A stretch of DNA of 55,554 nucleotides from a virus (IMGVR_UViG_3300030325_000004:1-55554); one strand, 5' to 3'. Counted from the first letter of the stretch, positions 1 to 21,059 are shown. Translations and numbers: made by a program. Notes: generated by a model from the sequence alone, not told the origin.

Positions 1-96
1 TGCTGCGTGGGATGCTGCGTGGGATGCTGCGCGGGCTCAGCAGGCCGATATTATCCGCAAATACTACCCCAACCCGCCCAAGCCGACGGAGGATAA

Positions 97-240
97 ATGA
101 TTACTCTGTCTGATATCTGCCAGGCACTCGAAGGGGCCAAGCTGGATGCAAAGGTCTGGATCGACCATGGCTACATCTGGATTGATTGCCCCACGGAGCC
201 GCGACTAATCCGCCTGTCCCTGGATCGGATGGGCCGGTGA
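97..240 (+). CDS. small hypothetical protein (47 aa)
   Basis: ATGA overlap with the upstream stop, GGAGG RBS; MITLSDICQALEGAKLDAKVWIDHGYIW... Confidence 0.6.
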   Translation: MITLSDICQALEGAKLDAKVWIDHGYIWIDCPTEPRLIRLSLDRMGR

Positions 241-410
241 AGCCTGCCCGCATCAATCCCGAACGGTTCCAGGCCATGGTCTACGCGGCCCACGAGAAGG
301 CCCGTGCCGAGGACCTGGAGAATCGCCAGAAAATCAGAGAGGAAGTCTCAATGTTGCAATATGCAACGCGCACCGAGGTCTTGAGGTCTTGGGGCGGTGA
401 CTGGAGGTAG
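237..410 (+). CDS. small hypothetical protein
   Basis: GTGA overlap start; VKPARINPERFQAMVYAAHEKARAED... Confidence 0.55.
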   Translation: MKPARINPERFQAMVYAAHEKARAEDLENRQKIREEVSMLQYATRTEVLRSWGGDWR

Positions 411-414
411 TTCC

Positions 415-738
415 ATGCTCGTCTGTGAACCACGCAGGATCGTCTCGAATGTTGACCGCATGGCCTACGATCACCTGGTCCGGGCTGGGGTCATCTACCC
501 TAACAAGGCCGGTCGCCCGCGATATGACAAGAAGGTACTCAAGTCGCGGATCGGCTGGAAGAGGCTCAACCCTACTGGCTGGCATCCCAAGGGCACGATG
601 TGCGATCAATGCGGAGCATCGTCTGGCCGCGAGAACAAACTGCATCCTTACGGCATGAGGCTCTGCCACGACTGCCTGAAGGTTCACGCCGTTTCCATTG
701 ACCGTGGACTCCGGCCCACCGATGAAATAAATTGGTGA
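415..738 (+). CDS. hypothetical protein with Zn-finger (CDQC...CHDC)
   Basis: GGAGGT RBS before ATG 415; two CxxC pairs. Confidence 0.65.
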   Translation: MLVCEPRRIVSNVDRMAYDHLVRAGVIYPNKAGRPRYDKKVLKSRIGWKRLNPTGWHPKGTMCDQCGASSGRENKLHPYGMRLCHDCLKVHAVSIDRGLRPTDEINW

Positions 739-745
739 TTCCCCC

Positions 746-773
746 TTGATCCCGGTTTACAAGAGCCTACAAT
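746..773 (+). promoter_or_regulatory. possible sigma70-type promoter
   Basis: TTGATC-16 bp-TACAAT in an intergenic gap upstream of ORF 796. Confidence 0.35.
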
Positions 774-795
774 CTACAAAAGAAAGGCGCTGAAG

Positions 796-1119
796 ATGCA
801 GACCAACTCGCTACAGATCATGGCCCGTGAGGGATCGCTTGGACCCGGCCCTGGCGACAGGACCGGCGGGATTCTCTACCGGGTCGAAGCGTGGGGCCAG
901 ACTGCCGCCCTGAATTTCCATGGCAACGGGGTTCATGCTATCGTCTACAGCTACCACCTCCCGCAGTTGCTCAACTTCTACCGGGATCTGGGGGCCGCCA
1001 TTGACTTCTTGCAGCCTGGCTTGATCAACCCACTGCCTGACGACAGCCCAGATTTTGTGGATGCCCTCAAGGTAATCCATGAAGCCGACAGAATCAGAAC
1101 CGAACGCAAGAGCCTCTAA
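796..1119 (+). CDS. hypothetical protein
   Basis: ORF with AAAGG RBS, co-oriented with neighbours. Confidence 0.65.
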   Translation: MQTNSLQIMAREGSLGPGPGDRTGGILYRVEAWGQTAALNFHGNGVHAIVYSYHLPQLLNFYRDLGAAIDFLQPGLINPLPDDSPDFVDALKVIHEADRIRTERKSL

Positions 1120-1141
1120 CTATCACCCAAGGAGCCGACAC

Positions 1142-1309
1142 ATGAAGCCCATCCGCTGGGATAAGCCCCGCCACGAACTGACCCGGAAGCAGCTCAAGCG
1201 GCTGACGAAGGGTGGCCACCATGACGCCCTTCCCGAACTCTCGAAGCGCATCGGTTGGGACCGTGCTGTCGCCGTCTGGAACTCCACCGCCTACCACCGT
1301 CCCGAATAG
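1142..1309 (+). CDS. small hypothetical protein
   Basis: AAGGAG RBS; MKPIRWDKPRHELTRKQLKRL... Confidence 0.65.
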   Translation: MKPIRWDKPRHELTRKQLKRLTKGGHHDALPELSKRIGWDRAVAVWNSTAYHRPE

Positions 1310-1317
1310 GAGCCGAG

Positions 1318-1695
1318 ATGAACCCTATGACTCACGCCGAAGCCCTCAAGGCCCTGTTTGTTGAGGGCGCTGACCTCGACCTGACCGATCGCCACGCCGC
1401 GCAGTATGCGCTGTGCATCGCGGGACAAATCGAGCGCACCGCGCAGACGCTGATCGACAGCCTGGTGGACGGCAACGATGCGATGCGGGCCGTTGCAGAT
1501 GAGCCCATGTTCTCGGAGGAGCCCTTCGCAGATCAGATCCGGCAGACCATCGCGGCACGTCGCATCCCCGTCGCCACGCCAGCAGAGGATGCCGCGCTGG
1601 ATGAGATTGAGGCCCGCCAGGTGGACCTCTCCAAGCCGGAGGTGTTCGACATTCTCGGGTTCACACAGAGCTACTTCAATCAGAAGGGGGCGTGA
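1318..1695 (+). CDS. hypothetical protein
   Basis: AGGAG RBS before ATG 1318. Confidence 0.7.
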   Translation: MNPMTHAEALKALFVEGADLDLTDRHAAQYALCIAGQIERTAQTLIDSLVDGNDAMRAVADEPMFSEEPFADQIRQTIAARRIPVATPAEDAALDEIEARQVDLSKPEVFDILGFTQSYFNQKGA

Positions 1696-1696
1696 C

Positions 1697-1912
1697 ATGC
1701 TCCAGATCCGCGTGATCAAGCCGAGCACCATTTACGGTCCCACCCTCCATGTCGGGCTAGTGGACTCCGATCTGAGCACCTGGGAAACCAACCCATTCGC
1801 GGGCATGACCCAGCCCCTCACCCCTGAGTTTGTGGCGTCCCTTGAGGATGCCGCAGCCAAGGCCAGGGTTGCGCTGAACGAGTGGCAGGCAAAGAAAGGG
1901 AAGTCCGCATGA
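1697..1912 (+). CDS. hypothetical protein
   Basis: AAGGGGG RBS; MLQIRVIKPSTIYG... Confidence 0.65.
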   Translation: MLQIRVIKPSTIYGPTLHVGLVDSDLSTWETNPFAGMTQPLTPEFVASLEDAAAKARVALNEWQAKKGKSA

Positions 1913-2118
1913 ACGCCGAAGAACGAGCAATCACCGCTCTCCACATGCTCAGACGCGCAGATGACCATGGGGAAGATTGCGGCATAGACGACTGCGCGAT
2001 TTGCGATGCCAGGGCGGTCCTCCAGGGTTCGTTCCTCCCGTGGGACATCCTGGCCGAGGCTAAGGCCGCTGGCGTAACGCTGGAATGGAAGGGTCCCTAT
2101 TTGGAGGTTATCGCATGA
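1909..2118 (+). CDS. hypothetical protein
   Basis: ATGA coupling; HxxxCxxxxCxxC motif. Confidence 0.6.
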   Translation: MNAEERAITALHMLRRADDHGEDCGIDDCAICDARAVLQGSFLPWDILAEAKAAGVTLEWKGPYLEVIA

Positions 2119-2259
2119 ACGCAGCTGAAAAGCCCTTGCGCCGTGCCCTGGAGAGATCTAACATCTTCCTCTCGGGAGGCTTGTGATGCCACACCGATGC
2201 ACACTAAAGGCAGATGACTACTACTACAGAGGGCCGATGCCCCGGAAACGGAAGGCCGC

Positions 2260-2445
2260 ATGATCCGAGCATTCAAGGCAGCCGTGATCCTGTTCTGCAT
2301 CGGCATGTGGAGCGCGTGGATTTGCGGGGCCATCATCGCCGCCAGCGACAACATCGCATACAGCCGAAAGAAGGCAGAGCAGGTCCGGCAATACAACGCC
2401 TCCATTGAGGCCATGACGAAGATTCAGAAGGAGATGCCGCGATGA
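2260..2445 (+). CDS. small membrane protein
   Basis: N-terminal hydrophobic helix; coupled to the next gene. Confidence 0.6.
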   Translation: MIRAFKAAVILFCIGMWSAWICGAIIAASDNIAYSRKKAEQVRQYNASIEAMTKIQKEMPR

Positions 2446-2825
2446 GCTGGCTCTGGTTCGCCATCATCCTAGCCGCCAGCCTCGCCGTGTGCGCCGGGAT
2501 CTACCGGGAGCAGGTTGAGCGGGACGAGGCGAGGCGACAGGAACGGGCGCGGGAACGCAGGGAACGCCTGGAGGATGCCGTCCGCGTCCTGGGAGAGCAC
2601 TACGCCGCAATGGTGGCCGTGGATGACGCCAAGGTGAAGGCATTCCGGGAGAACCGCGCCGAACTGAAGGCCCTCTGGGACGAGCAATACGCCCTGCTGA
2701 CAGGCTTCCGTAACGGCGACTTTGCTGAGTGGTATACGCATAGACTCTGGTGCCGGAACCGTGATCACTGGAGCTTCATCATCGCGGCGAAAGGCCGGAT
2801 CGTGCCGGATGAGATGAGCGCGTAA
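2442..2825 (+). CDS. membrane-anchored coiled-coil hypothetical protein; its stop codon lies in the left box of attC-1
   Basis: ATGA coupling, N-terminal TM helix, TAA inside GCGTAAC. Confidence 0.7.
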   Translation: MSWLWFAIILAASLAVCAGIYREQVERDEARRQERARERRERLEDAVRVLGEHYAAMVAVDDAKVKAFRENRAELKALWDEQYALLTGFRNGDFAEWYTHRLWCRNRDHWSFIIAAKGRIVPDEMSA

Positions 2826-2915
2826 CGGAGCCATTTAACCGGCCCCAGCGCAGGCCGGACCTTCAGAAACCACTTCGCACCCGCGCTGGGGTCCGAGTTG
2901 ATGCAGGGGTTAGGC
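2820..2915 (-). repeat. attC-like site 1 (96 bp)
   Basis: GCGTAAC...ttaaccggccccagcg / cgctgggg(t)ccg(a)gttga...GTTAGGC. Confidence 0.8.
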
Positions 2916-3242
2916 ATGGACGCAATCACTGATAAGGCCGCCATCAAGGCCATCCTGGACGACTACGACTGGCGGGAAGCGGTCAACTACGCATCCTGGA
3001 ACGCCGACGAAGTGGCCGAAATCCTGGCCATGGAAGAGGGCGAAAACGATGGGAATAACTGGCTCATGGTCGTGAAGCTCGAAGACGGGCGCTTCAGCTT
3101 CCTCTCTGCCGGTTGCGACTACACGGGCTGGGATTGCCAAGCCGGTGGAAGCAGCGACGAAAAGGGGAGTTTGGAAGAACTCATCCGAATGGGAATGGGG
3201 CAGGAGGACCGGGACAGGTTGGGATACAAGATCGACGCCTAA
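2916..3242 (+). CDS. cassette 1: hypothetical protein (SAGCDYTGWDC motif)
   Basis: ATG directly after GTTAGGC; TAA inside the next GCCTAAC. Confidence 0.8.
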   Translation: MDAITDKAAIKAILDDYDWREAVNYASWNADEVAEILAMEEGENDGNNWLMVVKLEDGRFSFLSAGCDYTGWDCQAGGSSDEKGSLEELIRMGMGQEDRDRLGYKIDA

Positions 3243-3331
3243 CGAAAAAAGTTCAGCGGCCAAGCCGCTTGAACACCCTTAACAATTTACAACACTTACG
3301 CGGCTTGGTCCGCTGGAACTAGAGGTTAGGC
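3237..3331 (-). repeat. attC-like site 2 (95 bp)
   Basis: GCCTAAC...gttcagcggccaagccgc / gcggcttgg(t)ccgctg(g)aac tagag GTTAGGC. Confidence 0.9.
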
Positions 3332-3334
3332 GTC

Positions 3335-3505
3335 ATGCAAATTAAGCAAGAACCATCATTCAAACCCGTGATCATTACGCTGAACACCCGTGAGGAAGCT
3401 GAAGATTTCTGGGCGATGCTACTAGATAAGGAATCAACACTAAAGGGCGGTCCCAAATCTCTAGCAATCAAGTTGAGCAACTGGTTCACGGAGCATTACC
3501 GTTGA
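3335..3505 (+). CDS. cassette 2: 56-aa hypothetical protein
   Basis: MQIKQEPSFKPVIITLNTREEAEDFW...HYR*; fills the space between sites 2 and 3; below the ORF-track cutoff. Confidence 0.75.
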   Translation: MQIKQEPSFKPVIITLNTREEAEDFWAMLLDKESTLKGGPKSLAIKLSNWFTEHYR

Positions 3506-3506
3506 C

Positions 3507-3606
3507 GCCTAACGACAGGCATAACCGGCCCTTGGGCCAGGAAGGACGAACCATGAACCAGAAAAACGAACAGGCCCAAGGGTCCGCGTTGAGCGGAGGG
3601 TTGGGT
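3507..3606 (-). repeat. attC-like site 3 (100 bp), RBS and ATG in loop
   Basis: GCCTAAC...aaccggcccttgggcc / ggcccaaggg(t)ccg(c)gtt...GTTGGGT. Confidence 0.85.
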
Positions 3607-3795
3607 GCGGCCACGGACCCTTGGTATCAGCACGAAGCAATTGATAGATGCCACGTCATTAATTGCATGATCTGGGACCACCTTGGAACACATCCATTTG
3701 TGTCCGCATATCCGGAGATCCAATCGCTAATCCTCAAGGCATCGGAACTACTGGGTGATGCGTACCAAAAAATGGGGCGGATAGAACTGAAGTAG
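3553..3795 (+). CDS. cassette 3: hypothetical protein
   Basis: AAGGA RBS and ATG inside site 3; ...HEAIDRCHVINCMIWDHLGTHP... Confidence 0.75.
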   Translation: MNQKNEQAQGSALSGGLGAATDPWYQHEAIDRCHVINCMIWDHLGTHPFVSAYPEIQSLILKASELLGDAYQKMGRIELK

Positions 3796-3796
3796 C

Positions 3797-3854
3797 GCCC
3801 AACTTCGGAGCTAGCTCGGCCCGATAGGGTCCGACGCTGAGCGACCAGTTGGGC
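3797..3854 (-). repeat. attC-like site 4 (58 bp)
   Basis: GCCCAAC...gctagctcggccc gata ggg(t)ccga(c)gct(g)agc gacca GTTGGGC. Confidence 0.9.
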
Positions 3855-3885
3855 CGCGAACCCCTAACCAATTGAAGGAGAAAAT

Positions 3886-4290
3886 ATGATCCAAGAATTT
3901 GTGAAGGCGTGGGAATCACGGAAGGGCGAAATCGAAGCGATGTTCCGGGCCAAGCACCCCGAGGATTATGCGGAGATCGTCAAGGCTGTAGTGATGATCT
4001 TGAACGCTGATTCGGAAGACTACGACCGGCCCGACCCGGAGCGGATTACCGGCATTGACCACGGCCATTACCAGGGCACTCTACTTTTCGTCATCGCCGG
4101 GTCGGGCTATCAACCCGATAACTTCTGGTTTGTGAAGGTGGGCTACGGGAGCTGCTCTGGATGCGACACCCTGGAGCGCATCAGGGACTATGACGATGCC
4201 CCGCCCTCAGATGAGCAGGTCGCGGACTACATGACGCTGGCCCTGCATATCGTCCAGGGATTGAAGCCGCTGGATGGTGAAACCGTCTGA
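3886..4290 (+). CDS. cassette 4: hypothetical protein (YQG...YGSCSGCD motif)
   Basis: AAGGAG RBS; Cys motif seen in small phage proteins. Confidence 0.85.
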   Translation: MIQEFVKAWESRKGEIEAMFRAKHPEDYAEIVKAVVMILNADSEDYDRPDPERITGIDHGHYQGTLLFVIAGSGYQPDNFWFVKVGYGSCSGCDTLERIRDYDDAPPSDEQVADYMTLALHIVQGLKPLDGETV

Positions 4291-4297
4291 ACGAGCG

Positions 4298-4392
4298 GCC
4301 CAACGAAAAGCTCACCGGCCCTGCCGCAGGTGAGCCACAACCCTTCAAATTTCGGACACGCGGCAGGGTCCGAGTGGAGCGCCCGGTTGGGC
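4298..4392 (-). repeat. attC-like site 5 (95 bp)
   Basis: GCCCAAC...gctcaccggccctgccgc / gcggcaggg(t)ccg(a)gtg(g)agc gcccg GTTGGGC. Confidence 0.9.
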
Positions 4393-4405
4393 GCGGGAGA
4401 TAAAA

Positions 4406-4642
4406 ATGAACTTTGGACAAGCTCTTGAAGCACTGAAGCTGGGATCAAAGGTGAGCCGTTCGGGATGGAACGGGAAGGGGCTCTGGCTGGAGCTGCAACA
4501 CCCGGACGAGAACAGCAAGATGACTCTGCCCTACATCTTCATCAACTATCCAGATGACGCGAAGACCACGCCCGGCGCACGGGTGCCCTGGTTGGCCTCG
4601 CAGACGGATGTGCTGGCCGAGGATTGGACCATCAACCTTTAG
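4406..4642 (+). CDS. tad2: cassette 5: DUF2829 / Tad2-like (Thoeris anti-defence 2) protein
   Basis: MNFGQALEALKxGxKVxRxGWNGKG...PWLASQTDVLAEDW is the DUF2829 signature. Confidence 0.85.
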   Translation: MNFGQALEALKLGSKVSRSGWNGKGLWLELQHPDENSKMTLPYIFINYPDDAKTTPGARVPWLASQTDVLAEDWTINL

Positions 4643-4643
4643 C

Positions 4644-4719
4644 GCCCAACTTTGGCATTAACCCGGCGGCGCAGCCGTCCGGTGAGCGAAGCGAACGCAG
4701 GTTGAATGCCCGGTTGGGC
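4644..4719 (-). repeat. attC-like site 6 (76 bp; identical to site 10)
   Basis: GCCCAAC tttg gcattaacc...ggtt(g)aat gcccg GTTGGGC. Confidence 0.88.
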
Positions 4720-4738
4720 GCGAACAATGGAGGAACAC

Positions 4739-4921
4739 ATGAAGCCCGAAATTGAAATCTACTTCGCCAAGTTCTACCGCCGGGATCCAGGTCTGGGGTG
4801 GCGGTTCACACTCTTCGAGATCTACAACTTCGATTCCGGAGCGGAGTGGGCACTATTCGCCATCGACTGGCAACCCGAAAACGCGCCCGATGGTAAGCGC
4901 CTAACGGTCAACCTGCTCTAG
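4739..4921 (+). CDS. cassette 6: hypothetical protein
   Basis: GGAGG RBS; MKPEIEIYFAKFYRRDPG...; TAG abuts site 7. Confidence 0.75.
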   Translation: MKPEIEIYFAKFYRRDPGLGWRFTLFEIYNFDSGAEWALFAIDWQPENAPDGKRLTVNLL

Positions 4922-4922
4922 C

Positions 4923-5020
4923 GCCCAACGATGCAGCTAACCGGCCCCGCCGTGGGCCAGAAAGGAACGATGTGAGCGAAGGCAACGCAGGCGGGGTCCG
5001 AGTTGATGCAAGGGTTGGGC
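4923..5020 (-). repeat. attC-like site 7 (98 bp), RBS and GTG in loop
   Basis: GCCCAAC...taaccggccccgcc / ggcgggg(t)ccg(a)gttg...GTTGGGC. Confidence 0.85.
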
Positions 5021-5211
5021 GCCCATCCTGCCCATTGTGCGGGAAGCCGCTGGAACGAGTGACGAATACCGGAGGCTGGATGAATGATGACCAGTTCGAT
5101 GCTTCAAAAGCTGGGGATTGGTTTTGCGAGTGCAGCGATAACGGGCGAGGGAATGCACCCTTCGCCTACTTCTGGACCCGCGAACTCGAATCCGGGCTCT
5201 TAGCCCACTGA
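4972..5211 (+). CDS. cassette 7: Zn-ribbon-like hypothetical protein
   Basis: AAAGGA RBS and GTG within site 7; CPLCG...WFCEC. Confidence 0.75.
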   Translation: MSEGNAGGVRVDARVGRPSCPLCGKPLERVTNTGGWMNDDQFDASKAGDWFCECSDNGRGNAPFAYFWTRELESGLLAH

Positions 5212-5212
5212 C

Positions 5213-5337
5213 GCCCAACGATAAAGCTGACCGGCCCAAGGGCCACCGAAACAACAGGAGGAGACATGCAAGACGAGCAGAACGCGGGAGAGCGGAAGAT
5301 GGAAGCCCTTGGGTCCGAGTTGAGCGACCGGTTGGGC
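5213..5337 (-). repeat. attC-like site 8 (125 bp), RBS and ATG in loop
   Basis: GCCCAAC...gctgaccggcccaagggc / gcccttggg(t)ccg(a)gtt(g)agc gaccg GTTGGGC. Confidence 0.87.
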
Positions 5338-5604
5338 GGTGCTCTCGAAGAGTCGCTGGTGGACACGCTTGTTACCAAGTGCGAATCCCTTCAGGCCCGC
5401 GTGAAAGAGCTTGAGGGGAAGCTGGCGGAAGAGGAACACAACCACCTTGGAACACTCGGCCAGCGTGACCAGTGCTATGAATGGGCCGACAAATTCGCCG
5501 ATGCCATCGCCGCGCATTTCCGGGAGGACATTGGCGAGCACTCGAACATGAACGACCCCTGGCGGAACGCCCTTGACTTGATCGAAGGGACATTCTGCCG
5601 GTGA
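5266..5604 (+). CDS. cassette 8: coiled-coil protein with an IGEHSNxNxPW domain (resembles Ead/Ea22-type phage proteins)
   Basis: AGGAGG RBS inside site 8; WADKFADAIAAHFREDIGEHSNMNDPWRNAL. Confidence 0.75.
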   Translation: MQDEQNAGERKMEALGSELSDRLGGALEESLVDTLVTKCESLQARVKELEGKLAEEEHNHLGTLGQRDQCYEWADKFADAIAAHFREDIGEHSNMNDPWRNALDLIEGTFCR

Positions 5605-5605
5605 C

Positions 5606-5703
5606 GCCCAACGGAGCCAGTTCACCGGACCCGCAGCCGGTGAACCACAACCTTTCAAATATCGGAATTGCTGCGGGGTCCGAGTGGAACTGGATGGTTG
5701 GAC
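5606..5703 (-). repeat. attC-like site 9 (98 bp)
   Basis: GCCCAAC...ccagttcaccggacccgcagc / gctgcggggtccg(a)gtg(g)aactgg...GTTGGAC; loop resembles site 5. Confidence 0.85.
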
Positions 5704-5725
5704 GCGATGCCTGGAGGAGAACGCG

Positions 5726-5902
5726 ATGAGTTGTGACCGACGATGTTTCGACAAAGAGAGCAAGTGGTACGGGCACGAAGACTGCAACACCTGCCCTGGA
5801 GCTGATGTATGGAGGCCCAGGAACAAGCCGGGGCAGGTGCAGAAGCAAGAGGACCCCGACCCCTGGATGGGTAGCGACCTGGCCGACGAAGGGGACAAGT
5901 AG
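5726..5902 (+). CDS. cassette 9: Cys-rich small protein
   Basis: GGAGGAG RBS; MSCDRRC...CNTC. Confidence 0.7.
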   Translation: MSCDRRCFDKESKWYGHEDCNTCPGADVWRPRNKPGQVQKQEDPDPWMGSDLADEGDK

Positions 5903-5903
5903 C

Positions 5904-5979
5904 GCCCAACTTTGGCATTAACCCGGCGGCGCAGCCGTCCGGTGAGCGAAGCGAACGCAGGTTGAATGCCCGGTTGGGC
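5904..5979 (-). repeat. attC-like site 10 (76 bp; identical to site 6)
   Basis: 5900-5997 is identical to 4640-4737 (98 bp). Confidence 0.9.
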
Positions 5980-5997
5980 GCGAACAATGGAGGAACA

Positions 5998-6186
5998 GTG
6001 CCGAGAATTAAGGTTGAATTTGAAGTCGAAATCCCCTCCGATGTGCGGATCAACGACGACAACCTGGAAGAGTGGCTGCGCTTCTGGTTGAACGACAACG
6101 GCGACATGAGTATGGAGAACCCACTGGATGATCTGGTGGGTGAGGTTGAACCCGTGTTCGGGACTTTTGAATGGGAATGGCGATAG
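5998..6186 (+). CDS. cassette 10: small acidic protein
   Basis: GGAGG RBS and GTG; very Asp/Glu-rich. Confidence 0.75.
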   Translation: MPRIKVEFEVEIPSDVRINDDNLEEWLRFWLNDNGDMSMENPLDDLVGEVEPVFGTFEWEWR

Positions 6187-6187
6187 C

Positions 6188-6253
6188 GCCCAACTTCGGA
6201 GCTAGCTCGGCCACGGCGCAGCCGGGGTCCGACGCTGAGCGACTTGGTTAGGG
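6188..6253 (-). repeat. attC-like site 11 (66 bp; same family as site 4)
   Basis: GCCCAACttcggagctagctcggcc...ggg(t)ccga(c)gct(g)agc gacttg GTTAGGG. Confidence 0.88.
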
Positions 6254-6273
6254 CGCTGAACAACGGAGGATGG

Positions 6274-6858
6274 ATGAACTGGCAGGATCGGATCGAAAAC
6301 TACAAGAGAGAGACAGGCTTTCCAGAGGCACTTTTTGTGGGGGCCGATGGCCGCGTCGTTGGGACCTGGATCATGGGGAACGACTACCGCGTGAAGTCCA
6401 CCTATTACGGCGGCTACCCGGCTGGATACCTGCGACGTATCAAATCCCTGTTCCCGGAGAAGGCCAGTGTCTTACATCTGTTTAGCGGGAAGGTGGACAC
6501 GGCAACCTTTCCAGGTAAGACAGTGGATATCAACCCCGACAACCAGCCTGATTTCTTGGATGATGCCCAACACCTTACGGGCGTCCCCGTCGAGGATTTC
6601 GATCTAGTGTTGGCAGATCCGCCGTATTCCGTCGAAGATTGCGAGCACTACCAGACCAGCATGATCAAGCGAAACGTGGTCATGAAGGCCCTTGGAAGGC
6701 GCTTGAAACCCGGAGCCCACGTTGTCTGGCTCGACCAGGTGCTACCCATGTATCGCAAGGATCAATTCGCCCTTGAGGCGGCTATCGGAATGCAGAAATC
6801 CACAAACCATCGGTTCCGAATCATCACGATTTTCCGAAAGCTAGACGAAGCGCCCTAA
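6274..6858 (+). CDS. cassette 11: DNA N6-adenine/N4-cytosine methyltransferase-like protein
   Basis: VLHLFSG (motif I-like) and VLADPPY (motif IV); TAA inside CCCTAAC. Confidence 0.8.
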   Translation: MNWQDRIENYKRETGFPEALFVGADGRVVGTWIMGNDYRVKSTYYGGYPAGYLRRIKSLFPEKASVLHLFSGKVDTATFPGKTVDINPDNQPDFLDDAQHLTGVPVEDFDLVLADPPYSVEDCEHYQTSMIKRNVVMKALGRRLKPGAHVVWLDQVLPMYRKDQFALEAAIGMQKSTNHRFRIITIFRKLDEAP

Positions 6859-6875
6859 CTAGCGCTAGGCGTACT
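6850..6875 (-). other. terminal core site of the array, possible attI-like site
   Basis: Minus strand reads gtac GCCTAGC gcta GTTAGGGcgc: a core box plus a degenerate inverted box, with no attC hairpin. Confidence 0.45.
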
Positions 6876-7020
6876 AATAAATTTACCCTTTACGCACCGC
6901 AAAACCAATAACCCCGTCTAGCCACAACGCCGGGTGGTTCGCCTAAACAACTAAACATGCCGGGTTGGGTCGGCCTTGACACGCCTAACAAATTGCCCAA
7001 CATTATGGGTGAGGTGATCG

Positions 7021-7470
7021 ATGCCGACAATCATGGTGAAAGGCCGGGAGGTAATCCTTGATGAAGAGGATATCCCGCTGCTTGAGTCCAGATCTTGGTT
7101 CTGGACTCCACAGGGTTACTTGGCAACATCAATCCCCATCAGCAAGGGGAAGCGCCGGACGGTATGCTTCCACCGGCTAGTGCTTGATGATCCGCCAACA
7201 CCAGCGGTAGACCACATCAACAGGGTTAAGCACGATAACCGTAGGTGCAATCTCCGCGCTTGTTCTGACCGAGAAAACAATCTTAACCGTCGGGGTTGGA
7301 CCAACCCAGAAAAGGGCGTTTCCTTCCGGCGCGGGAAGTGGCAAGTTATTGTCCGGGAGGGTAGCAAAATAAGATGGCTAGGGGCCTACAAAGATAAGGA
7401 TGAAGCCGTGCGGGTTGCCACCACTTATTTTGTAGCTCGGGACAACTCACCAACCGACCTAACACCATAA
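7021..7470 (+). CDS. free-standing HNH homing endonuclease (HNH plus AP2-like DNA-binding domain)
   Basis: HRLVL...VDHINRVKHDNRRCNLR...N; KGVSFRRGKWQ...WLGAY. Confidence 0.9.
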   Translation: MPTIMVKGREVILDEEDIPLLESRSWFWTPQGYLATSIPISKGKRRTVCFHRLVLDDPPTPAVDHINRVKHDNRRCNLRACSDRENNLNRRGWTNPEKGVSFRRGKWQVIVREGSKIRWLGAYKDKDEAVRVATTYFVARDNSPTDLTP

Positions 7471-7560
7471 ATCCAGCCGCAATCACGAACCGCCCCGCGC
7501 AGCAACCCCAGCGAATCCAGCCCGGAGCGGTTCGCCTAACCCACGAAACGGAGCAAGCCC

Positions 7561-7719
7561 ATGACCATCCCCCTTTCAGATATGGAGCATTGCCCGCGCT
7601 GTTGGGCCTACTTCACTAAGGGGTTCAACCATCAATGCCCGCCCCTCCTGGCGGCCCTGGTTTCGCTCCACGAACAGAAGAAAAACACCATCGAACCCGA
7701 AAGCGACCCCAACCCCTAG
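7561..7719 (+). CDS. small hypothetical protein
   Basis: GGAG RBS; CPRC...HQC. Confidence 0.5.
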   Translation: MTIPLSDMEHCPRCWAYFTKGFNHQCPPLLAALVSLHEQKKNTIEPESDPNP

Positions 7720-7727
7720 GAGCCCCC

Positions 7728-8102
7728 ATGACCAACAAACCCGCGCCCCTGGTGCTCGTCAAGCATGGCGCAACTCGGACAGTCCTGCTCATTCATAGGT
7801 GGGCCGTCAAAATCCCGTCTTGTATTGAGTGGCGGCTGTTTTTGCAGGGCCTTCTTGCCAATATGCAGGAACGCAAGTTTGCGGGTACCGAATGGCCGGA
7901 GTTTTGCCCCGTCATCTTCGGTGTGCCGGGAGGGTGGCTTCTGGTAATGCGCCGCGCTCAGCCACTGACCGATGACGAGTGGGAACGCTTCGAGCCCTAC
8001 ACGTTCTGCACACCCAAAGATCGGATCATCCCGGCAGAAGCCAAACGAGACAGTTTCGGCACCCTAAATAAAAAAATTGTGGCTGTCGACTACGGCAACT
8101 GA
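7728..8102 (+). CDS. hypothetical protein, possibly a degenerate kinase-like fold
   Basis: GATRTVLL...AVKIP...ANMQE...IVAVDYG resembles minimal kinase-fold phage proteins (inference). Confidence 0.7.
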   Translation: MTNKPAPLVLVKHGATRTVLLIHRWAVKIPSCIEWRLFLQGLLANMQERKFAGTEWPEFCPVIFGVPGGWLLVMRRAQPLTDDEWERFEPYTFCTPKDRIIPAEAKRDSFGTLNKKIVAVDYGN

Positions 8103-8121
8103 ACTAACTTAGGAGCCCCCC

Positions 8122-8808
8122 ATGACCAACGAACCGAAGCACCCGTGCCCTGAACGCGCCGCGCCCCTGGTGCCGTCCATGCCCGAATGCGATGTCTTGA
8201 GATACGGACAAACCGTTGTGATTGAAGGGCTGCGAGACTACGCCCGCCAGTGTGCCGAGATCGCCCAGGCCCAGGCGCAACGTGCGGATGGGGCGGAGCG
8301 CCGAGCCGAATACTGGAAGGCTGAACACAACGCCGCGAACGCAGAGATCGACAAACTCCACGCCACCCTCGCCCAGCGTGACCGCGAGGTGCTGGCGCTG
8401 CGGGAGGCCGCCAAAGAATCGGCTATCGCCTGGGAAGTTTGCCGATCTATCCATGAAACCTGGGCCAAGGGCAAGGACCCGCTGTATAAAACAAGACATC
8501 TCGATTTTGTGCGTGCCGCAGACAAAGCTCGCGAAGCCCTCGCCTCCACCGCGCAGGCCGGGGCAGAGGCCGAGCGCAAGATTAAAGAGTGGTGTGTCGA
8601 ATCCGCATGGAAATGGTGGAACGATCGCAGCCCCGAGCGGCCCTGTGGGCGAGATACCCTTGAGGCCGCCATCCTCGGCACGGGCGGGGAGGCCGTAGAC
8701 CTATCCAGATGCCCCAAGTGCGGAGGCCCTGCCGACAACGGGCACGACCGATGTCTGCCGCCGAATCCCTACTTCTGCACCAAATGCGAGAGCGGGGAGG
8801 AGCGATGA
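8122..8808 (+). CDS. coiled-coil hypothetical protein with C-terminal Zn finger
   Basis: AGGAG RBS; CPKCGGPADNGHDR...YFCTKC. Confidence 0.75.
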   Translation: MTNEPKHPCPERAAPLVPSMPECDVLRYGQTVVIEGLRDYARQCAEIAQAQAQRADGAERRAEYWKAEHNAANAEIDKLHATLAQRDREVLALREAAKESAIAWEVCRSIHETWAKGKDPLYKTRHLDFVRAADKAREALASTAQAGAEAERKIKEWCVESAWKWWNDRSPERPCGRDTLEAAILGTGGEAVDLSRCPKCGGPADNGHDRCLPPNPYFCTKCESGEER

Positions 8809-8975
8809 CCCGCCCCTACGCCACTGAATTGCGGCAGAATCATCGAGTATGAACGGATGAGATTTTGGGTCAGACTTCTTTCTTTGATTTTCTCTCTACT
8901 GGTAGTTGGGACCTTGGTATCCGCGATTGCCCGCGATATGAAGCGAAAGATCCCAACCCAGATCAAGGAGCACAA

Positions 8976-9176
8976 ATGATCCGAGGCTATTGCTTTTGGT
9001 GTGGACGCCACAAGTACCTCATGCGGGGACCAGACGGCAGGGAAGTGTGCGGTTTCTGCGTGGAAGAAGATGATTACATCAACCACCTGCACCGGAATGC
9101 CCGTATCGACCGGCGCGAGGCCAAGAAGGTCGCCAAGGGGCACCGCAAGCCCACGATGGTCTACGATGCCGATTGA
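8976..9176 (+). CDS. small Zn-finger protein
   Basis: AAGGAG RBS; CFWC...CGFC. Confidence 0.6.
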   Translation: MIRGYCFWCGRHKYLMRGPDGREVCGFCVEEDDYINHLHRNARIDRREAKKVAKGHRKPTMVYDAD

Positions 9177-9411
9177 TTACCGTTGCACCAGGGGAAGGGC
9201 CGTTGTCCGCGTACTGGCATACCGCCCCGCAAACGAGCCCATGCCTGACGACTGCCTGCATGTAGTGATCCAAGCCATGAATGGCAAGGAGCCTATTGCA
9301 GAAGACCCTCTGCATGTAGAAGACTGCCGGGTTCTGGATCTAGCCAGAGAGCTTCACCTAATGCGGAATGAGGGATGGGAAACCGTGGCGAACAGGGCCA
9401 TGTTATTGTAA
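9166..9411 (+). CDS. hypothetical protein
   Basis: Overlapping start MPIDYRC, co-oriented. Confidence 0.5.
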   Translation: MPIDYRCTRGRAVVRVLAYRPANEPMPDDCLHVVIQAMNGKEPIAEDPLHVEDCRVLDLARELHLMRNEGWETVANRAMLL

Positions 9412-9447
9412 ACTTGATGATGCCCACAGTGGGCGAAAGGAGCATGG

Positions 9448-9819
9448 ATGTGTTCGGTTGGTCCATCATGGCAGTTTGTTTCGAGCCCCCCAGGTTGGTG
9501 GGCCATCTACAAGAACAAGGCCGGAGGGCGCATGGCCATGCCCATCGTCTGCTGGAGGATGATGCCTGATAACCGGGATGAGGCGAGCATCGCTAATTCC
9601 CCAGACCGCCAGGTCCCCTACGGAGAGCCCATGATCCACGGCGGGGATGGCCTGCTGGAATCCTGTTTCGGCCAAGGCAACCTGATCCCTGGCGATAAAA
9701 ACAATTTCCGTTACGACTTCCGTGATGGCTGGATGTTCGATTATGCGGACTTCATCCCTAAAACCAAGGGGATTCTGCGCAAGCCTGAAGGCGATGCCAT
9801 CTATTGGGAGGTTCTGTGA
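9448..9819 (+). CDS. hypothetical protein
   Basis: AAAGGAG RBS; coupled to the next gene. Confidence 0.65.
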   Translation: MCSVGPSWQFVSSPPGWWAIYKNKAGGRMAMPIVCWRMMPDNRDEASIANSPDRQVPYGEPMIHGGDGLLESCFGQGNLIPGDKNNFRYDFRDGWMFDYADFIPKTKGILRKPEGDAIYWEVL

Positions 9820-10331
9820 AGCTGTTTGATCTTGGCCCGCTGTTTGAGCATGTCCGCGAAAAGATCGAGGCGGGTGAAACCCCTGATCCCGCAATTGTCA
9901 AGCTGATCATCCAGGAAGGCCCCAAGGCCATTGACGATTGGTTCCTGATGGTAGACGAGGTTGACGGAGACATCGAAGCGTTGAAGGCCCACCTGGAGAA
10001 GATCAAGTGCCGTCTCGATGCCCGGGAGCAGACCAAGGAGCGCATGGAGGGCATGGTCCAGGACATCCTGAAGCGGCACTTCCCCAAGGTTGACAAGGCT
10101 GGGAACATCACTGGCTATGGCCTCAAAACCGCGCTTGGGACCTATTATGTGCAGAAGACCCCGGTCTTCACCTTTACCGGCGCGGATCCAGTCAAGAACC
10201 CGCAGTTCTTCAAGTTCCCCGAACCGGAGTTCAAGAAGTCTGAAGCGATCCGGGTTTACAAGGAAGGCGTTCTCCCGGAGAATGTGACCGTGACAGAAGA
10301 ATTTACCGAAAGCGTGAGGTGCAGGCGATAG
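9816..10331 (+). CDS. siphovirus Gp157 / Gam-like coiled-coil protein
   Basis: DGDIEALKAHLEKIKCRLDAREQTKERME...KTALGT pattern; sits next to the SSB-like gene. Confidence 0.55.
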   Translation: MKLFDLGPLFEHVREKIEAGETPDPAIVKLIIQEGPKAIDDWFLMVDEVDGDIEALKAHLEKIKCRLDAREQTKERMEGMVQDILKRHFPKVDKAGNITGYGLKTALGTYYVQKTPVFTFTGADPVKNPQFFKFPEPEFKKSEAIRVYKEGVLPENVTVTEEFTESVRCRR

Positions 10332-10392
10332 ACCGCAGCTAGACGGTTTCTAGCGTAGAACAGGGGCATCAAGGCCCCGAAGGAGAAACAAC

Positions 10393-11034
10393 ATGAGCAA
10401 CGATCCCTTTGAAATCCCGTCTTCCGGCCCGCGAGTTCTCGCGCCCGAGGGCAAGTTCCCTGCCGTCCTGTATCTGGTCGCGGATCTCGGCCACCACAAG
10501 GATACCTACGACGGGAAGGAAACCATCAAGCACAAGATCTATCTGGGCTTTGAGCTTGTCGGCACGAAGATGGAAGACGGTCGGCCTTATGCCATCGGCA
10601 AGGAGTTCACCGTCTCCCCGTCGAAGTTCCACAAGGGCGACTACTACTTCGCCAAGACCTCGAACATCTACAAGCTGATCAAGTCGTGGGCCAACAAGGA
10701 CAAGATTCGGACGGATCCCGGTGTGCTGGTGGAGCTGCTGAAGCTGGCTCATCCCGCCACGATTACCGTGGAACATATCGAGTCCCGGCGCGATGCCACC
10801 AAGACCTACGCGGTCATCGAATCCGTGAAGCCCTACAAGGGCAAGGACAAGGTGGAGCGGTCCAATGAGCCCGTGGACTGCCTGAGTAACATGGATGATT
10901 TCGACAAACTGCCTGAGTGGATCCAGAAGAAGATCAAGGGCAACCTCGAAAACAATGGTGGCGTCCCCGAGATCCGCTATGACGATGCCCCTGGCGCTGG
11001 GGACGATCTTGATGACGCTTCGGTTCCCTTCTGA
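10393..11034 (+). CDS. ssDNA-binding / replication protein (NGO0469-like family)
   Basis: PEGKFPAV...DLGH...LPEWIQKKI; acidic tail ending DDASVPF. Confidence 0.7.
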   Translation: MSNDPFEIPSSGPRVLAPEGKFPAVLYLVADLGHHKDTYDGKETIKHKIYLGFELVGTKMEDGRPYAIGKEFTVSPSKFHKGDYYFAKTSNIYKLIKSWANKDKIRTDPGVLVELLKLAHPATITVEHIESRRDATKTYAVIESVKPYKGKDKVERSNEPVDCLSNMDDFDKLPEWIQKKIKGNLENNGGVPEIRYDDAPGAGDDLDDASVPF

Positions 11035-11048
11035 GCCGATTTAACCCG

Positions 11049-11079
11049 GCAGGGGGTTTAACCGCCCCCTGCTTTTTTT
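11049..11079 (+). terminator. intrinsic terminator
   Basis: gcaggggg-loop-ccccctgc followed by T7. Confidence 0.85.
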
Positions 11080-11091
11080 CTGGGGGAGAGA

Positions 11092-11331
11092 ATGAATGAT
11101 TGGCGCGGGATAGATATCATCGCGGGACTTCGCGGGGGCTACCCCGATAAATGCGATTTTTGCGGTCAACCCATGAAGCCCGAAGATGCGATCCCCGAGG
11201 AGGCTGGAGATTGGGCTTGCCGGGAGTGTTGGGACCGGTGGGAAAGCGAATCCCAGGCGCTACCTCCGTTCGAGGCCACGAAGGACGAGCGGGAACGAAG
11301 TGATAGCGAATCCGAGGGGCCGCGGGGATGA
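11092..11331 (+). CDS. small Zn-finger protein
   Basis: CDFC...CREC. Confidence 0.65.
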   Translation: MNDWRGIDIIAGLRGGYPDKCDFCGQPMKPEDAIPEEAGDWACRECWDRWESESQALPPFEATKDERERSDSESEGPRG

Positions 11332-11507
11332 AAGTAGATCAGCTTACCGAAGACGTATCCTTCCTTCGCCGCAGGCAGCATTGGCTTGAGGGACGGATCC
11401 GGGAAGGCGGGATGAAGAGCTACGATGTGAAGGAGGCAGAGGCCCTCGGCCGGGTTCTGTCTCTTTTGGAGAAGGCCGTCCAGAAAGTAGAGGAGGGCGC
11501 GAAATGA
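11328..11507 (+). CDS. small hypothetical protein
   Basis: ATGA-coupled at both ends; MKVDQLTEDVSFLRRRQHWLE... Confidence 0.6.
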   Translation: MKVDQLTEDVSFLRRRQHWLEGRIREGGMKSYDVKEAEALGRVLSLLEKAVQKVEEGAK

Positions 11508-12061
11508 CCATCTTGCGCTTCATCTGGCTTGGGATCTCCTTCCTCGCGGTAGAGGTATTCATCTTCCTGCCGCTCTACCTGGTTGGGCTTCTGGCCTTCC
11601 CCATTGCGTATCACTTTGCTTCCCTGACAGTGAAGGAATCCTACATCAACACATGCCAGGATGTTCTGGGGTTCAAGAACCGCGTCCTGGATGAGTGGCT
11701 GGGAAATCGGGAGGATGGCCTTCTCCCGGCTTGGTGGCAGAAGGAGCGCAACGGGACAGCTTACGGCTGGTTTCTCCGCAACCCGGTCTGCAACATGCGG
11801 TTCTGGCCCTATATTTCGACATTCCCGAATTCCGAAAGGATGAAGTGGATTGGAACCATCGACCATATTGGTAACGCCAACGAAACGGGTTGGTTCTTGT
11901 GCTGGCAGGGCCTTTATACAGGCTTCTGGTATCAGGGGAAGTATTTCGGGTGCTGGGTGGGGTGGAAATGTTCTCCCCGCGATAGGTTCCCGGACGCCCC
12001 GAGGGATTACCGCTATTGCGGGCTGGGCATTGCCTGCCAACTCTGGAAAGCCAAGAACTAG
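11504..12061 (+). CDS. Trp-rich membrane protein
   Basis: Long N-terminal hydrophobic segment; WLGNREDG...WFLRNP. Confidence 0.75.
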   Translation: MTILRFIWLGISFLAVEVFIFLPLYLVGLLAFPIAYHFASLTVKESYINTCQDVLGFKNRVLDEWLGNREDGLLPAWWQKERNGTAYGWFLRNPVCNMRFWPYISTFPNSERMKWIGTIDHIGNANETGWFLCWQGLYTGFWYQGKYFGCWVGWKCSPRDRFPDAPRDYRYCGLGIACQLWKAKN

Positions 12062-12176
12062 CAAGAAAAGGGAGCCCATAGGCCCCCTTGCTGGTGTGTA
12101 ACTTTTGTTGTATTCTTACTCCAGTTGCGATCCGGGCGGGTTGCACAAACGGGAGCAATAATCATGGTGGGTCAAA

Positions 12177-12374
12177 ATGGATACTTTGTCAATCCTGAAA
12201 AGGCTTGTGGATCGTCATGGACCCGCACATGCTGCGCGTCTCATCGGCGTCACTTATCAATCGGTATGGCGCTGGATGAATGGGAAGTCCACGATCCGGG
12301 GAGGGTCCGCGAAACTGATCCTACTCGCGGGGGAGGCCGATGAAAAGGATCTGGAGTCTAAGGCTCAATCTTGA
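12177..12374 (+). CDS. Cro-like HTH regulator
   Basis: AARLIGVTYQSVWRWMNG. Confidence 0.75.
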   Translation: MDTLSILKRLVDRHGPAHAARLIGVTYQSVWRWMNGKSTIRGGSAKLILLAGEADEKDLESKAQS

Positions 12375-13017
12375 CGAATTTAACGCTCTCGCTGGGATGG
12401 CGTTTACCGATTCAGATAGGGCCAGCGTCCTGAATGGCCTTCTGGCCGGGATGAATCGTGCCCAATTACCCGAACAGTGTTCGAGCATTGTTCGAGCAGC
12501 GTTCGACGCCGGGGTGCGTTGGAGACTGGATGCCGAGGAGTATGTCGAGAAGAAGGCAAATGCTGGAAAGAGGAGTGCTGACGCCCGGAGAGAGAAGTAC
12601 GGAGATGCCCAGCCGTCGAGCAGTGATCGAACACCGCTCGAACAGTCCTCGAACATAACCAATAACGATAAACCAATAACTAAGAACGAAGAACACGGGA
12701 AAGCATCCTCGCCCTCACGGGCTCGTCAGTCTGCTGAGAAGAAGGAAATACCTCCCATCCCAGAAGAGCTTCTTCCTTTCCTTGAAGCCCTCACCCGCGA
12801 CTGGCCACGCAAGAGCCATGATGGTCGGCGCGTCACGATTCTGCGCCCCAAGGACTCGTGGGAGAAGATCTGCAAGAACCGTGGCGACGATGACCCCAAG
12901 ATTCCCGTCAATGCAGCCCTTGCCTACCTCGATACCAACCCGGCCCAGTATGTCATCGGGATGGATAACTTCTTCGGGGTGGCCCGCAAATACACCAAAT
13001 TCGTTGTGGAGGATTAG
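12340..13017 (+). CDS. replication initiator (lambda O-like architecture)
   Basis: AGKRSADARR basic motif, low-complexity linker with iterons, directly upstream of DnaB. Confidence 0.65.
   Translation: MKRIWSLRLNLDEFNALAGMAFTDSDRASVLNGLLAGMNRAQLPEQCSSIVRAAFDAGVRWRLDAEEYVEKKANAGKRSADARREKYGDAQPSSSDRTPLEQSSNITNNDKPITKNEEHGKASSPSRARQSAEKKEIPPIPEELLPFLEALTRDWPRKSHDGRRVTILRPKDSWEKICKNRGDDDPKIPVNAALAYLDTNPAQYVIGMDNFFGVARKYTKFVVED
12478..12690. promoter_or_regulatory. putative replication origin (iterons)
   Basis: [TC]GTTCGA x3 at 11-bp spacing (12478-12506) and TCGA[AG]CA x4 at 11-bp spacing (12616-12655), then an A-rich tract. Confidence 0.55.
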
Positions 13018-14384: not shown

Positions 14385-14440
14385 CCGTTAAAAGAAATAG
14401 CCTAGATTTGTAACAGCGCAAGGATGCGCAAGGGGGACTG

Positions 14441-14882: not shown

Positions 14883-15048
14883 CGACAATCTCAGAAACCC
14901 TATTTAACTACGAAGAAGCCAAAGAAGGAATCAGGACCGCATCCCAAGAACTAATCCAGAAAGCAGTAGAACAGGGATGCAACGAAAAGAGCGCACAGGA
15001 TGCAAGGGTAGCCTACGCCTATCTAGTGGGCCTTACACGGAGGAAGAA

Positions 15049-20975: not shown

Positions 20976-20979
20976 ATGT

Positions 20980-21057: not shown

Positions 21058-21059
21058 CT

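Follow-up and report, generated by a model that had tools for sequence, protein, structure and literature searches.

Results

Organization of the cassette array

The virus record IMGVR_UViG_3300030325_000004 of IMG/VR is 55.5 kb long and is estimated to be 97% complete; its whole length is called the window here. At positions 2820-6859 it contains an array of 11 imperfect hairpins that alternate with 11 small open reading frames (ORFs), every ORF lying on the plus strand. With a probability of about 80%, we interpret this array as a cluster of attC sites lacking an integron integrase (CALIN), composed of 11 genuine integron-type cassettes of reversed polarity, with attC sites of the family of the host, that were moved as hairpin-first units.

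Each hairpin has RYYYAAC as its left core and GTTRRRY as its right core, and these outer cores form an R box in all 11 sites. Two cores deviate from the consensus by one base each: GCGTAAC of site 1 and GTTAGGG of site 11. Sites 1-11 span 3.4 kb and are 58-125 nt long. The array opens with a complete hairpin at 2820 and closes with a bare core, GCCCTAA/C (6853-6859; here and below, the slash marks the putative crossover point), as the original prediction had described. The TAA of this core (6856-6858) is the stop codon of the last gene. Two or more attC sites with no intI nearby define a CALIN, and the window contains 11 such sites. Models of IntI (TIGR02249) and of tyrosine recombinases (PF00589) gave no match in the 55.5-kb record. 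A complete integron would have intI, attI, and the cassette promoter Pc beside the array; the window has no intI and no definable attI. A classical cassette carries its gene on the top strand of attC, upstream of its own site, whereas all 11 genes here lie downstream of a hairpin and on the bottom strand.

The features of the array are listed below with the length of the proteins in amino acids (aa). Bit scores refer to two covariance models, R1 and R2, which are described in the next section, and the strand of a site is that of its attC top strand.

2442-2825, upstream gene; its stop codon is inside the left core GCGTAA/C of site 1
2820-2915, minus strand, attC site 1; R2 46.2 bits on minus; bulges A20 and T24 on the 3′ arm of the plus strand
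2916-3242, plus strand, ORF B, 108 aa; codon log-odds +39; stop codon TAA in the core GCCTAA/C; no Pfam or PHROG match
3237-3331, minus strand, attC site 2; R2 65.3 bits on minus and 13.5 on plus; R1 18.4 bits on minus; G and T bulges on the 3′ arm of the plus strand
3335-3505, plus strand, ORF C, 56 aa; 82% identical homologue in the prophage-like locus L067, likewise on the bottom strand
3507-3606, minus strand, attC site 3; R2 47.0 bits on minus; loop with AGGAAGGA and the ATG (3553) of ORF D; loop purine fraction 0.70
3553-3795, plus strand, ORF D, 80 aa; start within the site 3 loop; phrog_5142, E 2.5e-5, residues 23-76
3797-3854, minus strand, attC site 4, 58 nt; R1 28.3 and R2 34.6 bits, both on minus
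3886-4290, plus strand, ORF E, 134 aa; phrog_12588, E 2.9e-15; codon log-odds +43.6
4298-4392, minus strand, attC site 5; bulges G, A, and T on the 3′ arm of the plus strand; R2 65.4 bits on minus and 18.9 on plus
4406-4642, plus strand, ORF F, Tad2-like (Thoeris anti-defence 2-like domain); PF11195, E 2.3e-24, full length
4644-4719, minus strand, attC site 6, 76 nt; identical to site 10; R1 24.2 and R2 18.5 bits on minus
4739-4921, plus strand, ORF G, 60 aa; codon log-odds +16 for the frame 4706-4921
4923-5020, minus strand, attC site 7; R2 58.4 bits on minus; loop purine fraction 0.74; loop with the GTG (4972) of ORF H
4972-5211, plus strand, ORF H, 79 aa; translation with CPLC...CEC; start less certain, alternative ATG at 5080
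5213-5337, minus strand, attC site 8, 125 nt, the most host-like site; R2 83.9 bits on minus; loop with AGGAGGAG and the ATG (5266) of ORF I
5266-5604, plus strand, ORF I, 112 aa; start within the site 8 loop; phrog_6628, E 5e-8; codon log-odds +29.6
5606-5703, minus strand, attC site 9; R2 52.2 bits on minus
5726-5902, plus strand, ORF J, 58 aa; codon log-odds +6.3 for the frame 5684-5902
5904-5979, minus strand, attC site 10; copy of site 6 before an unrelated gene, with the same scores (R1 24.2, R2 18.5)
5998-6186, plus strand, ORF K, 62 aa; codon log-odds +14.6 for the frame 5962-6186
6188-6253, minus strand, attC site 11; R1 27.4 and R2 28.0 bits on minus; right core GTTAGGG
6274-6858, plus strand, last cassette gene, DNA methyltransferase-like with a DPPY motif; 46 viral relatives; weak Pfam match, E 0.0098
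6853-6859, plus strand, terminal bare core GCCCTAA/C; right end of the array, joined to the constant phage backbone

The plus strand is the coding strand. The array genes include the Tad2-like match to PF11195 and members of three PHROG families, and a codon model trained on the 12 longest ORFs of the window gave positive log-odds to all plus-strand ORFs of the array (1.8 to 50); most minus-strand ORFs were negative, the highest reaching +3 to +8. The GTG at 4972 is the sole in-frame start ahead of the CPLC motif of ORF H. The CPLC...CEC arrangement of this protein is possibly a zinc ribbon, judging from its translation, and the Pfam match to Zn_ribbon_RlmA is weak and under the cut-off (E 3e-4). 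An extra copy of the core GCCTAAC is found inside ORF G at 4899-4905, 18 nt ahead of the true left core of site 7; it may be a chance occurrence or a remnant.

Strand of the attC sites

It had been predicted from the sequence that the bulged bases lie on the right arm of the coding strand. We folded the 11 sites by forcing only the AAC:GTT pairs and then walking the main helix. On the plus strand, 23 pure bulges of 1-2 nt were located on the 3′ arm and 3 on the 5′ arm, which agrees with this claim. Counted from the 3′ end, the bulges are at positions 16-17, 20-21, and 23-26, with a few deeper ones at 29-32. Sites 6 and 10 have only the G16-type bulge in these folds, and site 3 has no pure bulge. 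As a control, 29 attCs were folded in the direction of their cassette genes. They were taken from the Vibrio phage-borne integron MK672802, the Shewanella prophage integron MZ568829, and two class 1 integrons on the P1 phage MH445380, and the boundaries of a few of them were mis-picked by the script. Their pattern was the mirror image: the 5′ arm held 33 bulges and the 3′ arm 4, at positions 16, 20, and 23-24. According to the available text of PMC5027507, the extrahelical bases opposite 5′-AAC on the attC bottom strand are G16, an optional N20, and T23/24. Site 2 on the plus strand reads T23, a six-base stem, G16, AAC, a five-base spacer, and GTTAGGC. The bulges match the published bottom-strand rule, and therefore the plus strand is the bottom strand, down to the numbering. 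The spacer beside the right core, predicted to be mostly 5 bp, is 6 nt in sites 9 and 11 and 5 nt in the other nine sites, as judged by eye. The sites thus have bulges on one arm and an unpaired central spacer, as expected of attC. Moreover, the plus-strand fold is more stable than the minus-strand fold in 10 of the 11 sites, and greater stability is the published direction for bottom strands.

Two covariance models were used to assign the strand independently of the window. R1 was built from four class 1 attCs that had been oriented by their top strand. In the locus of its training sites, R1 gave cmlA1, a site outside the training set, 35.8 bits on the gene strand (plus), and reverse strands scored far lower. 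On the three control loci, the four training sites and cmlA1 were regained, and the Vibrio and Shewanella arrays were detected only marginally. With filters off, R1 matched sites 4, 11, 6, 10, and 2 at 28.3 to 18.4 bits, all on the minus strand, and it matched none of the 11 sites on the plus strand at E values up to 10. Because R1 is a narrow model, R2 was built from host sites: 24 attCs from seven arrays of Geothrix and Holophaga integrons, oriented by intI and by the host genes. R2 matched all 11 sites with exact boundaries on the minus strand (18.5-83.9 bits), scored at most 18.9 bits on the plus strand, and found nothing else in the 55.5-kb window at E < 0.2. Models made from accepted attC sites therefore recognize five sites (R1) or all 11 (R2). 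MAFFT alignments combining different attC types had misplaced right arms and were excluded from the models. In an alignment of nine sites, which had been fitted to the model, 93.3% of the stem cells are paired compared with 80.1% in shuffles; none of 500 shuffles reaches this value, and 11 of the 26 stem pairs show compensatory changes.

These results confirm that the canonical attC top strand of the window array is the minus strand and that the coding strand is the bottom strand. The comparison of the strand of the covariance matches with that of the ORFs, proposed beforehand as a check, placed the sites on minus and the ORFs on plus rather than in the canonical arrangement. Since R1 and R2 match only, or score far higher, on the minus strand, the coding strand would also be the recombinogenic one, as predicted.

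The opposite assignment has to be considered, namely canonical sites with the top strand as the coding strand, crossover at the right-hand G/TT, and a hairpin owned by the gene upstream of it, as in bacterial integrons and in phage TJE1. The stop codons adjoin the RYYYAAC box as they do in classical cassettes, the cores are palindromic, so that the sequence alone is ambiguous, and the models give weak plus-strand scores (up to 18.9 bits). However, R1 and R2 score the minus strand far above the plus strand at all sites, and the bulges are on the wrong arm for this arrangement. Together with the boundary evidence given below, this makes canonical sites highly improbable.

Probable host family and its integrons

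The right-arm pattern of the window sites was scanned over one genome per species and occurred in at least 120 loci. Among the matches listed, nearly all were in Geothrix or other Holophagaceae, with a density of up to 10 matches per 8 kb. IntI was found above the curated cut-off in six of the six host genomes tested (458-471 bits). In Geothrix fuzhouensis, the array is located upstream of intI; 25 copies of the motif are on the intI-sense strand and 2 on the opposite strand. A second host genome has the same geometry (3 versus 0). The long ORFs between the host sites are on the strand opposite to the motif, and intI is divergent. In 129 intervals of 13 host loci, the longest ORF was on the attC top strand in 114, on the bottom strand in 1, and unclear in 14; the lone reversed interval is a marginal case of 55 codons.

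The host attC is a uniform 124-nt site whose top strand reads GCT-C-AAC-T-CGG-A-CCCC, with bulges at 16, 20, and 24 on the 5′ arm. The window sites share the attC arms, the three bulges, the core sites, and, in site 8, part of the loop with the Geothrix and Holophaga integrons, and site 8 aligns to R2 over its whole length, including the loop. The attC sites of the array belong to the family that fills the chromosomal integrons of Geothrix and Holophaga (Acidobacteriota). In contrast to the 124-nt host sites with genes on the top strand and an intI, the window has sites of 58-125 nt, genes on the bottom strand, and no intI. The attC family is shared while the ORF strands are opposite; thus, phage and host use opposite gene strands of one attC family. 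The original prediction that the phage cassettes would be antisense to Pc follows from the host geometry, in which intI is divergent and the host genes are on the top strand of the model. The phage, which is from soil, probably infects Geothrix-like bacteria.

The integrons of Geothrix are very large and uniform, with 25 sites in 20 kb next to intI in G. fuzhouensis (locus L195). R2 gave 133 matches in 90 kb of 12 host loci. The 124-nt attC is nearly the same across Geothrix species, and its bottom-strand loop is purine-rich. Our literature search found no paper on integrons of the genus Geothrix.

A search of host integrons for the same ORFs in inverted orientation had also been proposed as a check. 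When 12 proteins (those of the 11 cassette genes and of the gene upstream) were compared by tblastn with 136 host loci (893 kb), none was found inside a typical array of 124-nt host sites, a null that does not establish the absence of phage cassettes from host integrons. The search gave two matches, both in phage-type arrays (loci L067 and L167).

Other viral loci

Of 61 other viral loci, 14 had R2 matches, to a total of 38 sites. Thirteen of the 14 loci were used for an interval count; they derive from 12 contigs, two of which have near-identical arrays. A codon model placed the best ORF opposite to the top strand of R2 in 20 of 21 between-site intervals; intervals whose best ORF score was 5 or lower were dropped, and locus L004, the closest relative of the window, was left for separate description. 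Loci L172 and L179 matched the DNA pattern with no R2 match and were excluded from the interval count. Some of the other viral records with arrays are rated 100% complete. IntI was found in none of the 10 related viral records searched. Further relatives were fetched for ORF E (one) and for the Tad2-like gene (80); none of these 81 loci had an R2 match at E ≤ 0.01, and they provided no extra junctions.

In L004, the methyltransferase gene is flanked by sites on the minus strand. A site at 2299-2354 of this locus, directly after the methyltransferase, scores 68.3 bits with R1 and approximates the bottom strand of an aadA-type class 1 attC, a clinical type. Of the 46 methyltransferase relatives, 16 were inspected and have no cores or hairpins; only the window and L004 have them. 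Compared with these 16 homologues, the methyltransferases of the window and L004 have five extra C-terminal codons and use the TAA of the core as the stop codon. Hence, the recombination core seems, from this comparison, to have replaced the original stop codon. The region concerned is 6840-6859 in the window and 2281-2305 in L004.

Locus L067 (positions 1-8000 of a 342-kb contig of an Acidobacteria metagenome-assembled genome) contains six reversed attC sites of the phage type together with PHROG matches to tail fibre and portal proteins. The genome has an intI on another contig. The homologue of ORF C in L067 (82% identity) has the reversed layout.

The record is a metagenome assembly, and its attC family is that of the host chromosome, so that a piece of a host chromosomal integron might have been joined to a phage contig by misassembly or binning. 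However, the gene polarity is opposite to that of host arrays, the sites are 58-125 nt long rather than a uniform 124 nt as in Geothrix, and the cargo is of the phage type (the Tad2-like protein and the phage methyltransferase). In addition, the junction with the backbone recurs with zero mismatches in runs of four studies (see below), and similar arrays occur in the 13 other viral loci, some in records rated 100% complete. We consider such an artefact extremely improbable.

Proposed crossover point and mobile unit

All 11 ORFs are whole within units of the form [C-hairpin-ORF-RYYYAA], which extend from the C of a left core to the AA of the next core. Three ORFs start inside hairpin loops (ATG 3553 after AGGAAGGA, ATG 5266 after AGGAGGAG, and GTG 4972), and a boundary at the right-hand G/TT would cut these three. 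The cores that flank a gene have 2 mismatches in total, as counted by eye, compared with 6 for the cores within a hairpin, and the terminal CCCTAAC is the exact complement of the right core of site 11, GTTAGGG. As read from the cores, the mismatch pattern shows exchange at the core sites and alone does not separate the two polarities.

The mapping of crossovers between related phages had been suggested as a check, and pairs of related loci provide information on where similarity ends. The Tad2-like genes of the window and L167 are 85.7% identical; their upstream hairpins are 76.5% identical (site 5 in the window), and their downstream hairpins are 53.8% identical and differ in length. In the pair L173/L182, a block of approximately 95% identity runs through the gene to TAGCGCCCAACG and collapses thereafter. 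In both pairs, identity falls after the downstream left core.

Population data were obtained from Logan contigs of four runs from four studies (soil, aquatic, and groundwater). Contig pieces extend from 3236/3239/3241 to 3513/3515/3531 in three runs, and a fourth run has a piece at 3255-3513; the pieces from 3236/3239/3241 to 3513/3515 correspond to left core 2 to left core 3. In run X10, a piece at 5606-5910 corresponds to left core 9 to left core 10. These core-to-core pieces have zero or one mismatch. The backbone starts at 6856/6857 with zero mismatches in all four runs, with different sequence to its left; in run X4, the sequence to the left ends in ...TAGCGCCC, a typical cassette end. 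In the same run, a variant of ORF D ends in a left core and is followed by 19 letters equal to window positions 3244-3262, in the interior of hairpin 2; hairpin 2 and ORF C thus stand behind the ORF D variant, and the junction is confined to AAC. Within the array, 18 of the 42 listed piece ends are at most 3 nt from a left or terminal core, where approximately 1.6 are expected from length alone, and one is at a right core. Most joints had sides shorter than 30 letters with the intervening sequence given as not known, and they were left uninterpreted. Parts of the stretch with no contig cover are evidence of nothing.

Canonical sites with exchange at G/TT fit these boundaries poorly: three genes would be cut, the last gene would have no attC, identity collapses just past the downstream left core in two gene pairs, and right-core ends account for only 1 of 42. 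Instead, the data support the predicted crossover at the left AA/C, with the hairpin moving along with the downstream gene. Whole ORFs within the units, a backbone that begins at the terminal core in four runs, and one junction inside AAC all point to this position. The core-to-core pieces, the gene order in X4, and the similarity of the hairpin upstream of the Tad2 homologue suggest that hairpin and downstream gene travel together; breaks in the 3′ arm and one copied hairpin are exceptions.

Several observations count against reversed cassettes moved by site-specific exchange. The left end of the L173/L182 block is in the 3′ arm of the upstream hairpin, and the ORF C pair is uninformative (54.5% identity for the upstream hairpin and 60.7% for the downstream one). 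In variants of ORF D from two runs, the match begins at T3583, in the 3′ arm, with a different loop and stem before it. Approximately 98 bp are identical between 4640-4738 and 5900-5997, comprising a stop codon, the hairpin of sites 6 and 10, the right core, and the leader to the start codon, and the genes before and after these copies differ. Copying or exchange thus involved the hairpin and leader but not the gene, so that hairpin and gene have not always been inherited together. From this copy and the 3′-arm breaks, it follows that exchange at the conserved arm also happens, by homology or otherwise, with a possible contribution of homologous exchange at these arms. The tool selected which contig pieces to list, with 266 more outside the list, and a contig end does not always mark a real junction. 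Only three of the 11 loops are purine-rich, the signature of bottom strands; host loops on the bottom strand have a mean purine fraction of 0.73. The three purine-rich loops of the window are those that hold start codons, which hints at the usefulness of the bottom strand as a leader. Exchange with host integrons is unsupported, because the cassette proteins were not found in the typical host arrays searched. Finally, the strand choice and the cut site are deduced from structure, homology, and natural variants.

In another explanation, the hairpins derive from attC but are now conserved linkers and RNA leaders, and shuffling occurs by homologous recombination at a 27-nt 3′ arm and an 11-nt box of stop codon plus core. 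Reversed polarity would then be kept because a purine-rich bottom strand is a useful 5′ leader with a ribosome site and a start codon. The start codons inside three loops, the breaks within the 3′ arm, the identical hairpin and leader ahead of unrelated genes at sites 6 and 10, and the lack of a recombinase in the window and of IntI in the 10 relatives are in line with it. However, one junction falls within the three nucleotides AAC of a left core, the gene-flanking cores are cognate, and the terminal bare core exactly complements the last right core. The bulge spacing of 16/20/24 and the stem covariation have been kept, although neither leaders nor homology boxes need them, and IntI is present in every host genome tested. 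We therefore regard leaders shuffled by homology as unlikely, and prefer integron-type cassettes of reversed polarity.

Discussion

CALINs in phage genomes have been published by Qi, Rajabal, Ghaly, Tetu, and Gillings in 2023 (PMC9892861). According to the available text of that paper, IntI1 recombined five of the six phage attCs under test, and did so better with the bottom strand than with the top strand; phage TJE1, the best example there, was described as typical. These arrays resemble that of the window in having attC sites and small genes, no integrase, and methyltransferase cargo. In our hands, R1 placed the three attCs of TJE1 on the plus strand, which is the strand of the TJE1 genes and the canonical arrangement; this served as a control of the method. 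By contrast, the 11 sites of the window are on the strand opposite to the genes. We found no paper on reversed polarity in phage arrays, and it is unmentioned in the available text of PMC9892861, although the supplementary tables on its 17 CALINs may bear on this point. To the published arrays, the window adds a host family with canonical arrays, a canonical published phage as a control, and natural junctions that place the exchange point.

Single reversed cassettes are known in bacterial integrons, for example, the toxin-antitoxin cassettes of Vibrio, which have their own promoters. The sedentary integrons of Vibrio served as a control; the control attCs are bulged on the 5′ arm, and the sites of the window on the 3′ arm. 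In the Vibrio phage integron among these controls, the annotation places two genes on the minus strand. A reversed gene is on the attC bottom strand, so it cannot depend on Pc, in bacterial reversed cassettes and in the window alike. However, reversed cassettes are occasional exceptions in bacteria (1 of 129 host intervals here), whereas reversal is the rule for the whole array of the window and recurs across phage contigs.

On the basis of the sequence features, the mobile unit would read, along the gene, [C - attC hairpin - ribosome site/start - ORF - stop - RYYYAA]. The hairpin would act as the 5′ leader of its gene, and the loop appears to provide the ribosome-binding site and start codon in three cases; the next core supplies the stop codon or directly follows it. 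The phage has no integrase, so the IntI of the host is presumed to act. Such action is suggested by the membership of the sites in the host attC family and by the junctions. Host IntI would cut the plus strand at 5′-AA/C of the left core and may move units between phage genomes during infection. The first unit may have entered at a simple GTT-type secondary site. Loot et al. (preprint 10.1101/2022.09.11.507474, available text) described insertion by an integron integrase, IntI1, at secondary sites (attG) with a loose GWT motif in the chromosome of E. coli. It is a possible route of entry with no attI, and the window array likewise ends in a bare core joined to phage DNA; known from E. coli with IntI1, it may serve as a precedent only for entry of the first cassette in the window.

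Since attC fixes the polarity, a phage cassette inserted in a host integron would run antisense to Pc, and a host cassette carried by a phage would run antisense to phage transcription. Two cassette pools may therefore be served by one enzyme, each read only in its own context. The silence of such phage cassettes in a host integron would follow from the geometry alone. We put forward tentatively, at a little short of even odds, a wider view: the phages of Holophagaceae may keep a mirror-image pool of bottom-strand cassettes that is shuffled by a borrowed host integrase. Tad2-like proteins, methyltransferases, and other counter-defence cargo would be expressed from phage transcripts alone, and host cassettes from Pc alone. 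The bottom strand would double as a translation leader that brings along a ribosome site and a start codon as well as the stop codon of the neighbouring gene.

Integrons are known as a bacterial tool, and many cassettes carry anti-phage defences according to recent work. If the proposal is true, the pool on the phage side would allow fast swapping of accessory and counter-defence genes, using the same hairpins and presumably the host enzyme with flipped polarity, and the orientation of attC would decide who reads a cassette. The host genus has cultured strains with intact integrons, and shuffled natural variants are visible in public metagenomes.

Other features of the window

Promoter and terminator scans of positions 1-8000 found 2 promoter-like sites (3.0 expected from shuffles) and 4 terminator-like sites (7.6 expected). 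No promoter-like site was found inside the array, in a scan no better than shuffles that is uninformative on array transcription. No RNA runs containing the stretch were found. No match was obtained when window positions 1-20000 were compared by megablast with 50,697 phage records.

Core-like heptamers at 6983 and 6995, past the end of the array, scored 7.3 bits with R2, which is not significant. An HNH endonuclease gene (7021-7470; HNH_3, E 1e-5) is located approximately 160 bp past the array end, and a homologue with 49% identity is found in the host locus L151. At gathering thresholds, Rfam gave no attC-type match in the window and listed only a group I intron and five tRNAs. The intron match is on the minus strand at 43668-44037, with 69.4 bits over the full model, and the tRNA gene cluster is at 20901-21397, also on the minus strand.

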